NCBI GenBank assembly: GCA_964421635.1
Contig: CAYQWZ010000002.1
Coordinates: 65,749 to 129,748, forward strand
Direction: 5' to 3'
Length of the DNA stretch: 64,000 bases
From: an uncultured Candidatus Saccharibacteria bacterium
GTDB lineage: Bacteria; Patescibacteriota; UBA1384; CAILIB01; JAUSJZ01
Both the position numbers and the translations under genes were made by a program. The notes beneath the pieces are model-generated. The model had not been told where the DNA came from, ran no database searches, and was given only the letters and a program-made list of their open reading frames with translations. This document shows, one piece after another, positions 60,849 through 62,179 of the stretch (positions are counted from its first letter, which is position 1; every line of letters starts with the position of its first letter).

Positions 60849-60877
60849 TTGACTTTTACCCGAAAAAGTGCTATAAT
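60849..60877 (+). promoter_or_regulatory. Near-consensus sigma70 promoter for the GC-rich gene.
   Basis: TTGACT (60849..60854), a 17-nt spacer tttacccgaaaaagtgc, then TATAAT (60872..60877). Further downstream is GGAGG, placed 7 nt before the ATG at 60941. Confidence 0.6.
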
Positions 60878-60940
60878 TTCGGCTACAAAGGGCTGAAAGG
60901 CTCTTTCTGTTTGGGGGTGTGATTACCGGGAGGTAATGAG

Positions 60941-62083
60941 ATGGACAAGTGGAAGAAGCTTAAAACCGGATCCCTGATCGTTCTGGCTCTGGTTGCCGTT
61001 GCGCTGCTCACCATGGTGATTTCTCAGCACAGAGACATTTTGAGAGCCATCTCGATGGGTCTGCGTGTGGCGATCGCTGTCAGCATGATGATCGGCCGGT
61101 GCCATTTCGGCAACTGGGCTGACAGTGTCGAGAAGCCCAAGAAATGGGAAGGCGATCACAAGTGGATTCAGGCGACTCTGAAGATCGCCTTTGACGGTCT
61201 GATGATCGCTCTGATTACCGCCACCATTCTTTCTCCGGCCATTAACTTGGTCGGCTACGGAATGGGCGGTCTGCTCTGTCGCCTGCTTGTTGGCCGACCC
61301 GACCCACTCTACTACCACAACGCCGCTGCTTCGTGGGCGCCGGCTTTCTGGATCTGGGCACTCCTACTCGGCGCGTGGCATTGTGCCTTCCGTGCCTCGC
61401 AAGAGAAGGAGACCTACGACAAGATCCGCTGGGATCGGCATGCGACGAAGTTCGTAGCTGGTCTGATGGTTGTCTTCGTCGGCGTGCTGGTGTCCTTCAT
61501 CAGCGCGACATGGACCTATCGGGTCGAAGGATCCGTTGAAGTCTGTGAACTGGTCGAGAAACAGATCGCTGTAGGAGAGTCGATTCGGTTCACGGCGGTT
61601 CCGCGAGACCGTGCTTACCTGGAAGCGGCTGAGAAGCCTCTGGGAGCACTGAACAAGGTCGACATCAACCTGATGGTCAGGGAGCAGAACGAGGCTGAGT
61701 TGGAAGGCACAACCCAACCTTCTGAGATCCTTGCAGGATACACCATTGAGGTGCTTCTGAAGGGAACGAAGAAGACCCAGAAGGGTGCACCGGACATCGA
61801 AATACCTGCTGTGGAACAGTACAGCCAACTGCGGCAGGAGCTGCAGGAGTTGTCCCGAATGCAAGAACTAGCACTGAATGAAAGGCCTACGGCCTACGGC
61901 TGGTTCGACGACATTACGGGCAAGCCGATTCCGTATCGTTACTACTGGACTACAGAAGGAGCGGTACGGGTCGTGACGGCTGTTCCGCAGAAAGCCACCT
62001 CCAGCGGTCGGCTACTCCGCGACTTCTCGCTGCAAAGCGAGGAGGAGCAGAACAAGGTCATGAACGCCCGATACGGGCTCTGA
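60941..62083 (+). CDS. Compositionally foreign (GC-rich) gene encoding a 380-aa membrane protein with 4-5 N-terminal TM helices and a ~190-aa soluble C-terminal domain of unknown function.
   Basis: Codons are dominated by CTG/GCC/GGC/CGG/GAG, in contrast to the flanking AT-rich genes. Many spurious antisense ORFs arise, as is typical of high-GC DNA. TM segments SLIVLALVAVALLTMVI, LKIAFDGLMIALITATIL, INLVGYGMGGLLCRLLVG, WAPAFWIWALLLGAWHCAF, FVAGLMVVFVGVLVSFISATW. The C-terminal domain (VEGSVEVCELVEKQIAVGESIRF ... TAYGWFDDITGKPIPYRYYWTTEGAVRVV) is not recognisable. Confidence 0.6.
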   Translation: MDKWKKLKTGSLIVLALVAVALLTMVISQHRDILRAISMGLRVAIAVSMMIGRCHFGNWADSVEKPKKWEGDHKWIQATLKIAFDGLMIALITATILSPAINLVGYGMGGLLCRLLVGRPDPLYYHNAAASWAPAFWIWALLLGAWHCAFRASQEKETYDKIRWDRHATKFVAGLMVVFVGVLVSFISATWTYRVEGSVEVCELVEKQIAVGESIRFTAVPRDRAYLEAAEKPLGALNKVDINLMVREQNEAELEGTTQPSEILAGYTIEVLLKGTKKTQKGAPDIEIPAVEQYSQLRQELQELSRMQELALNERPTAYGWFDDITGKPIPYRYYWTTEGAVRVVTAVPQKATSSGRLLRDFSLQSEEEQNKVMNARYGL

Positions 62084-62127
62084 CTAAAACCTCCCGGTGA
62101 ATAAGGAACTCCAGGGGGACTTGAGAA

Positions 62128-62158
62128 AGGCGGCGCTTCGGCGCCGCCTCTTTCTTTT
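62128..62158 (+). terminator. Strong rho-independent terminator closing the GC-rich cassette.
   Basis: AGGCGGCGC-TTCG-GCGCCGCCT followed by CTTTCTTTTG. A 9-bp GC stem with a UUCG-type tetraloop. Confidence 0.65.
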
Positions 62159-62179
62159 GCCAAATTTTATTTTGCTATA

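Follow-up and report, generated by a model that had tools for sequence, protein, structure and literature searches.

A GC-rich single-gene transcription unit

The window analysed here, a stretch of 64,000 nucleotides (nt) from an uncultured Candidatus Saccharibacteria bacterium (GenBank assembly GCA_964421635.1, contig CAYQWZ010000002.1, positions 65,749 to 129,748 of the forward strand), contains near its 3' end an open reading frame (ORF) of 380 amino acids (aa), which lies in a block of high guanine plus cytosine (GC) content together with its own transcription signals. All positions are counted from the first letter of the window. An earlier note, made from these letters alone, had described the block as a compositionally foreign, self-contained expression cassette for a membrane-anchored protein and had proposed that it was recently acquired by horizontal transfer.

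The unit begins on the plus strand with an extended-consensus sigma-70-type promoter (60849–60877), in which the -35 element TTGACT and the -10 element TATAAT are separated by a 17-nt spacer carrying TG, and 11 of 12 positions match the consensus. The only exact match to TTGAC-N15-TGnTAnAAT in the 64 kb is this promoter. Transcription starts were assumed to lie 7 nt past the -10 element. The predicted 5' untranslated region (UTR) of ~57 nt (60884–60940) carries at its 5' end a stem-loop, formed by pairing of 60887–60894 with 60899–60906, which was also scored as a terminator-like site (60877–60898). The Shine-Dalgarno region (60923–60934) includes GGAGG at 60929–60933 and, by a 10-nt perfect inverted repeat, provides the 5' arm of a predicted long-range helix. 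The ORF (60941–62083, plus strand) encodes a five-helix membrane protein with a C-terminal domain (residues 190–380), and its mRNA is predicted to be structured. The 3' arm of the predicted helix is an anti-Shine-Dalgarno-like element in the 3' UTR, ACCTCCCGGT (62089–62100), which begins 5 nt past the stop codon. The unit ends with an intrinsic terminator (62128–62159) made up of a 9-bp GC stem with a TTCG loop, AGGCGGCGC-TTCG-GCGCCGCCT (62128–62149), and a T-rich tail. The promoter, the GGAGG Shine-Dalgarno sequence and the 9-bp GC terminator with its TTCG loop, all named in the earlier note, were thus found at 60849–62159. No minus-strand promoter-like site was found inside the unit, and no antitoxin RNA was detected there. 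No Rfam covariance model reached the gathering score in the leader or body of the transcript; the sub-threshold matches all overlapped the 3' UTR and terminator (62032–62226) and are attributable to the terminator hairpin, and only tRNAs reached threshold in the window.

Sliding GC, computed in 300-nt windows and also at 1-kb resolution over the 64 kb, was 0.51–0.59 across ~60.85–62.2 kb compared with 0.30–0.40 upstream, and it was 0.39–0.46 in the first 300-nt windows downstream, climbing to 0.48 inside the adjacent gmd gene. At 1-kb resolution the block had the highest GC of the 64 kb (0.566), the remainder ranging from 0.34 to 0.46. The GC-rich tract spans the transcribed region including the UTRs and ends at the transcript borders. 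The 380-aa ORF has a GC of 0.566 and a GC content at third codon positions (GC3) of 0.685, which corresponds to z = +5.7 relative to the 45 other ORFs of the window (mean 0.336, standard deviation (sd) 0.061). Its codon choice is inverted with respect to the genome, as seen for CTG (0.54 vs 0.09), AAG (0.82 vs 0.23) and TTC (0.90 vs 0.29), and NNC/(NNC+NNT) is 0.75 compared with 0.33 in DnaK. The recomputed values agree with the GC-rich segment between AT-richer flanks and the shifted codon usage described in the earlier note, and the combination of deviant GC3 with an own promoter and terminator bears out its description of a self-contained single-gene transcription unit. DnaK is normally a highly expressed gene. 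Since DnaK, FtsH and BipA use host-type codons, ordinary translational selection fails to explain the codon bias of the 380-aa gene and was ruled out as its cause.

On the opposite strand of the GC-rich body lie five ORFs of 60–166 aa, and two more overlap it out of frame on the sense strand. An overlapping antisense gene was considered as a candidate and rejected, because the antisense frames break at different positions among the homologues of the unit and are similar to one another solely where they face the conserved core of the sense protein. The antisense ORFs are therefore spurious, as the earlier note had assumed.

A modular membrane protein family and the origin of the unit

The 380-aa protein contains five hydrophobic helices at about residues 9–27, 33–51, 76–94, 131–150 and 171–189, one of which falls just under the hydropathy threshold. 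Hydropathy and the positive-inside rule suggest that the N-terminus and both Lys/Arg-rich loops are located inside, and that the conserved SPxxN...YYH loop and the C-terminal part are located outside. The 4–5 membrane helices of the earlier note are thus retained, whereas its ~190-aa cytoplasmic domain is predicted by the positive-inside rule to lie outside the cell. No family could be assigned by Pfam, NCBIfam, PHROGs or PADLOC, and the PDB profile search returned noise only, in agreement with the statement in the note that no motif was recognisable. AlphaFold2 models were unusable (mean predicted local distance difference test score 44.6 for the single sequence and 45.3 for a four-sequence alignment).

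When 1.84 billion representatives were searched exhaustively with phmmer, no more than three relatives were found, with 33–37% identity, so that the family comprises four sequences including the window gene. P0002 (475 aa, matching query residues 158–380) is carried by locus L004, P0003 (379 aa, residues 67–193) by L006, and P0004 (333 aa, residues 82–192) by L007. The P0002 gene lies directly 5' of gmd-YkuD-TrxR-pilin-pilin-x-PilX-RuvA-x-sigma70-DnaG, which is the gene order downstream of the window gene. The P0003 gene is preceded by a fragment resembling the 397-aa neighbour of the window gene and followed by gmd and YkuD, and the P0004 gene is preceded by homologues of the neighbouring 933-aa TrbL-like and 397-aa proteins. 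The regulatory architecture is common to these loci: TTGAC and GTGnTAnAATT are invariant in the promoters of all four, a stable hairpin starts 0–3 nt from the assumed transcription start in all four, the ribosome-binding site of each is of the GGAG type, and the GC-rich hairpin terminator has a counterpart at the equivalent position in L004, L006 and L007. The homologues are also GC-rich (GC 0.585–0.633, GC3 0.72–0.74) compared with their neighbouring genes (GC3 0.26–0.54), and GC3 over all four copies is 0.69–0.74.

Some details of L006 (GCA_964506475.1, contig CAZDLT010000016.1) deserve mention. At 3447–6083 of this contig, gmd and the YkuD transpeptidase gene each appear as two ORFs, owing perhaps to frameshifts, pseudogenes or assembly errors, and the cassette homologue is separated from gmd by three extra small genes without a Pfam match. 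For P0003, the start was called at a GTG (position 505), probably wrongly, since an ATG in the same frame at 487 follows the ribosome-binding site GGAGAGG. Translation from this ATG yields MSRRNWV..., in agreement with the N-terminal anchor of P0004.

The search for further members was extended in several ways. In word-indexed searches, neither the four-sequence alignment nor the 397-aa neighbour retrieved anything but known members or the query itself. In a genome collection, a PilX scan gave no match, and the best of the gmd matches listed, which came from mixed phyla, was 61% identical. A lineage-specific gmd DNA pattern was found in metagenomes only in the L004 contig, an exact look-up of gmd revealed no variant contexts, and the large-scale searches returned neither empty sites nor additional members of this very poorly sampled lineage. 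The gene content of the window is Patescibacteria-like (FemAB, YkuD, VanW, type IV pilins, and PolA with two detected domains), and the lineage is probably a rare, Patescibacteria-like one.

The homologous loci bear directly on the origin proposed in the earlier note, namely the recent import, from a donor of high GC, of a foreign cassette whose composition would not yet have drifted to that of the host, and which might be a module for abortive infection, superinfection exclusion or a toxin-like function. Like a classical genomic island, the unit combines deviant composition and codon usage with its own expression signals, and its product is an orphan protein. Unlike such an island, it occupies matching contexts in three divergent relatives, where its regulatory architecture and its GC excess recur. 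No integrase or other mobility gene was found at its borders, where the neighbours are a 397-aa gene without a family match and gmd; no tRNA lies nearer than ~30 kb to the borders, and no flanking direct repeats beyond chance were detected there. No donor-like homologue was found among the 1.84 billion representatives, plasmids (protein and DNA), phages or viral contigs, and no homologue is known outside this context. The effector idea received no positive support, since the 380-aa protein gave zero PADLOC, PHROG or Pfam matches at E up to 0.1. At four-fold degenerate sites in seven flanking genes, identity between the window and L004 was 0.29–0.41 compared with 0.24–0.31 expected from composition, and at the third positions of the cassette it was 0.37 compared with 0.29. 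Since the flanking four-fold sites are near saturation between the two genomes, the high GC must be maintained, and the retention of GC3 past this saturation makes an old acquisition that has not yet ameliorated untenable. Independent re-acquisition at one site with the same promoter would call for donors that are not represented among 15 billion proteins, and is not a parsimonious alternative. A recent foreign origin is thus very improbable, and the best reading is that the GC-rich block is native and vertically retained.

The sharp composition borders might also have resulted from an assembly chimera or from an engineered or contaminant insert, which the earlier note had left open. Both borders recur at 100% identity in three other assembled contigs, which come from two ENA assemblies and one Logan assembly and encode the same protein. 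No similarity to plasmid records was found, divergent natural homologues with the same architecture occur in other metagenomes, and the surrounding window encodes housekeeping genes (DnaK, FtsH, MurJ, PolA, LepA and an aminoacyl-tRNA synthetase). The chance that the block is an artefact is negligible.

Three modules can be distinguished in the family: the anchor at the N-terminus, a core with the conserved motifs SPxxN-x3-G-x-GG...YYH...WAPAFWIW...RxDR, and a C-terminal domain that varies. The helix core of the window protein recurs in P0003 and P0004 and its ~190-aa C-terminal domain in P0002, and the spacers rich in Ala, Glu, Lys and Pro of P0002–P0004 have no counterpart in it. Between the window and L004, flanking proteins are 62–92% identical, whereas the cassette protein is 37% identical and aligns over its last 174 aa only. 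Among the homologues, the ends of the cassette are conserved and the interior is scrambled. This mosaic is the evidence for a recombination hot spot, at which modules of a hypervariable surface or contact protein would be exchanged via conserved flanks; GC-biased gene conversion would lift GC3, and RNA folding would be secondary. In Mycoplasma pneumoniae, the P1 adhesin operon and the RepMP repeats are markedly GC-richer than the AT-rich genome and recombine, and the present gene, hypervariable and probably encoding a surface or contact protein, is similar in being far GC-richer than an AT-rich reduced genome. It differs in that the 64 kb contain no paralogues, partial donor copies or repeated donor cassettes. 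Furthermore, the GC excess includes the UTRs and stops at the transcript borders, and the shift of GC3 from ~0.34 to ~0.69 seems large for biased gene conversion alone. A hot spot also fails to predict folding beyond that of synonymous shuffles, mostly stronger on the sense strand, as presented in the next section, and we know of no RNA-structure excess described for P1. Recombination with GC-biased conversion is the main rival explanation and is compatible with a structured mRNA, the two not being mutually exclusive; as the primary cause of the high GC we regard it as unlikely, although it deserves serious weight.

Predicted folding of the transcript

The coincidence of the GC-rich tract with the transcribed region including the UTRs led us to test RNA folding. 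The structures described here are thermodynamic predictions for all loci. With dinucleotide-preserving shuffles in 200-nt windows, the four transcripts showed mean z values of -2.1 to -3.0, and neighbouring genes -0.55 to +0.61. A synonymous-codon shuffle, which keeps the protein, codon usage and GC content constant, gave z = -3.68 for the window gene and -5.56, -7.23 and -6.82 for L004, L006 and L007, respectively. Thirty-seven genes, averaging about -0.5, served as controls in this shuffle: 21 other window genes (mean -0.30, sd 0.86, minimum -1.76) and 16 GC-matched ORFs (0.56–0.66) of unrelated genomes (mean -0.65, sd 1.21, minimum -3.72). When the sense strand was compared with its reverse complement, z was -6.6 vs -1.7 in the window, -8.6 vs -4.1 in L004, -9.5 vs -4.6 in L006 and -5.0 vs -4.5 in L007, the sense-strand excess being ~twofold or more in three of the four loci. 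The larger folding excess on the sense strand points to RNA and not to DNA palindromes, although the difference is marginal in L007. The whole window transcript has a predicted minimum free energy of -545 kcal/mol over 1272 nt, or about -0.43 kcal/mol per nt. The GC-richness thus appears to be a property of the transcript and to be under active maintenance, which most likely acts on the RNA.

The ribosome-binding region (60923–60934) is perfectly complementary to 62089–62100 in the 3' UTR, and full-transcript folding predicted pairing between the two with a probability of 0.84–1.00. The energy of this duplex was -24.7 kcal/mol compared with -12.5 +/- 2.7 for shuffled 3' UTRs (0/1000). In L004, the equivalent CCCTCCCGGTT just past the stop codon pairs with the ribosome-binding region of that gene (-30.2 compared with -16.6 +/- 3.0, 0/1000), and one position of the helix is changed on both sides, from T-A in the window to G-C in L004. 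The helix is absent in L006 (p = 0.64) and L007 (p = 0.51) and hence is not family-wide. This predicted closing helix is a subgroup feature of the two genes that have a common C-terminal domain.

In the window and L004, a predicted and statistically significant helix between the ribosome-binding site and the 3' UTR would enclose the whole ORF of a highly structured mRNA for a membrane protein. This arrangement resembles hok/sok, where a long-range helix connects the initiation region with the 3' end of a compact structured message. In a type I toxin-like system of this kind, the mRNA would be stable, folded back from 5' to 3' and inert until it is activated by processing. The products of the present family, of 333–475 aa, are nevertheless far from the usual size of less than 60 aa, that of the window gene being ~7 times larger than Hok, and neither an antisense promoter nor an antitoxin RNA was detected within the unit. 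The fold-back occurs in only two of the four homologues, and the gene is a single-copy, syntenic and retained chromosomal gene with a large conserved soluble domain. A type I toxin-like function is accordingly improbable.

Neighbouring genes and the proposed role of the unit

Upstream of the unit, on the same strand, lies a cluster of four overlapping or tightly spaced genes (55001–60846) encoding proteins of 460, 151, 933 and 397 aa, with GC3 of 0.22–0.34. The 933-aa protein is TrbL/VirB6-like, as judged by a match to Pfam PF04610 (E 1.4e-5, 183 of 215 profile positions). PDB searches with three of the upstream neighbours were empty, and this sub-threshold TrbL/VirB6 match was the only annotation obtained for the cluster. 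The GC3 of the 460-, 933- and 397-aa genes (0.22–0.28) is among the six lowest of the window ORFs, those of the 460- and 933-aa genes being the two lowest, and that of the 151-aa gene is 0.34; this low-GC3 cluster adjoins the gene with the highest GC3 of the window. Since the homologues of the cluster in L007 are just 31–32% identical, the whole cluster evolves fast. VirB6-like genes are described as widespread in Patescibacteria, and one of them was essential for epibiotic growth of a cultured Saccharimonadia strain (PMC12102498). Downstream, gmd (62210–63265, plus strand), which encodes GDP-mannose 4,6-dehydratase (PF16363, E 5e-133), serves as a syntenic anchor and is 87% identical to the gmd of L004. 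It has its own TGcTATAAT -10 element at 62173–62181. The mechanically assigned start of the gmd ORF at 62180 falls inside this element; the start of the public call at 62210 (ATGGAGTCA) aligns with L004 gmd and is more plausible.

The extended promoter pattern of the cassette recurs at one other site of the window, where it heads the only other GC-rich island (35676–36250, plus strand; GC 0.50–0.58). This island has a TTGACA-17-TAGAGT promoter with TG and a GC hairpin terminator at ~36207–36245, contains no plus-strand ORF longer than 39 aa, shows a fold z of -3.78 and matches no Rfam family; a 136-aa minus-strand ORF over it (35776–36186) is probably spurious. The island is a candidate for a novel structured non-coding RNA of ~540 nt. 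By its promoter pattern and GC-richness, the cassette thus shares signals and composition with an apparent stable RNA gene. Elsewhere in the window, a 1043-aa ORF (30418–33549, plus strand) without a Pfam match and with a raised GC of 0.46 follows a tRNA cluster (Met, Met, Glu; 29590–30067), and the 708-aa DNA polymerase I ORF (47219–49345, minus strand) shows the Pfam 5'-3' exonuclease and polymerase domains, the 3'-5' exonuclease domain not being detected.

Taken together, we favour the explanation that the locus is a native single-gene unit for a fast-evolving, modular five-helix membrane protein, the transcript of which has been selected for structure and is probably long-lived; we assign it a probability of about one half. 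Selection for a densely base-paired, nuclease-resistant mRNA would then be the most likely cause of the high GC, and the consensus promoter, a protective 5'-end hairpin, the GC-rich structured body and the strong terminator would together support a stable message. In the subgroup formed by the window gene and L004, the sequence past the stop codon may mask the ribosome-binding site, so that the full-length mRNA would be stable and poorly translated until it is opened or processed. We infer from these predictions that the mRNA may be long-lived and its translation gated. As the gene stands at the end of a cluster of VirB6/TrbL-like membrane proteins, its product, which is probably outward-facing, may belong with that cluster, and its context suggests a role at the cell envelope or the host interface linked to the VirB6-like cluster.

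Several points weigh against this explanation. The evidence for structure consists of thermodynamic prediction, and the four sequences of the family are too few for covariation statistics on any helix. One of the 37 controls, a GC-matched ORF, reached z = -3.72, which is about the value of the window gene but is clearly exceeded by the three homologues. The closing helix is restricted to half of the family, as described above. The module mosaic is compatible with recombination or replacement, through which biased gene conversion could increase GC. As for the context, the link to VirB6 depends on a Pfam score just under the curated cut-off (25.4 bits compared with 25.9), and no VirB4-type Pfam family was found in the 28 of 46 window ORFs that were scanned, nor was a complete conjugative system (VirB4, relaxase) found among them.

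The favoured explanation has partial precedents. E. coli ompA, with its 5' UTR hairpin, and the Lactobacillus S-layer gene slpA are envelope protein genes with stabilised mRNAs. Like ompA and the S-layer genes, the present unit is monocistronic, has a very strong promoter, a 5'-end stem-loop (at the predicted start) and a strong intrinsic terminator, and encodes a probable envelope product that varies between strains. In ompA and slpA the stabiliser resides in the UTR, whereas here the whole coding body is GC-shifted (0.69 vs 0.34) and is predicted to fold beyond the shuffles in all four orthologues. The encoded protein, with its several membrane helices, is neither a porin nor an S-layer protein. 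The position of the gene recalls the entry-exclusion and specificity partners that adjoin TraG/VirB6-like genes, as in TraG-TraS of F and TraG-Eex of SXT, which are small (about 140–170 aa). By analogy with TraS and Eex, a hypervariable inner-membrane protein is encoded just 3' of a large VirB6-like protein (933 aa here) with a long variable C-terminal domain. The protein described here differs from them in its length of 380 aa and in the lack of sequence similarity, and no VirB4 or relaxase accompanies it among the scanned window ORFs.

A stronger form of the favoured explanation would be that the transcript itself is the object of selection, as a compact, GC-rich, rRNA-like, masked and long-lived mRNA, closed by the helix between ribosome-binding site and 3' UTR, for a hypervariable outward protein that is deployed on contact with a host or partner. 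Such a reading is compatible with the maintained GC3, the folding excess of the sense strand and the position next to a VirB6-like cluster, but it is quite improbable at present. In its most radical version, the RNA or the gene would be tuned to a GC-rich host cell, into which it would be delivered via the adjacent VirB6-like apparatus.

Compositional outliers are routinely taken as evidence of recent horizontal transfer, and this locus is a counter-example: an orthologous gene stands ~20 GC points above an AT-rich genome across lineages with saturated synonymous sites, and this excess coincides with predicted RNA folding well in excess of that demanded by protein sequence and codon usage. GC-based island callers and the filters used to decontaminate metagenome-assembled genomes can therefore mislabel native genes. 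If the explanation favoured here is true, the base composition of a complete coding gene can be remodelled by selection acting on the architecture of its mRNA, an effect already accepted for the rRNA and tRNA genes of AT-rich genomes. VirB6-like systems are thought to mediate host dependence in epibiotic lineages (PMC12102498), and the unit would then represent a previously unseen, fast-evolving family of envelope proteins, encoded next to a VirB6-like cluster, from a lineage that is poorly sampled and probably epibiotic.

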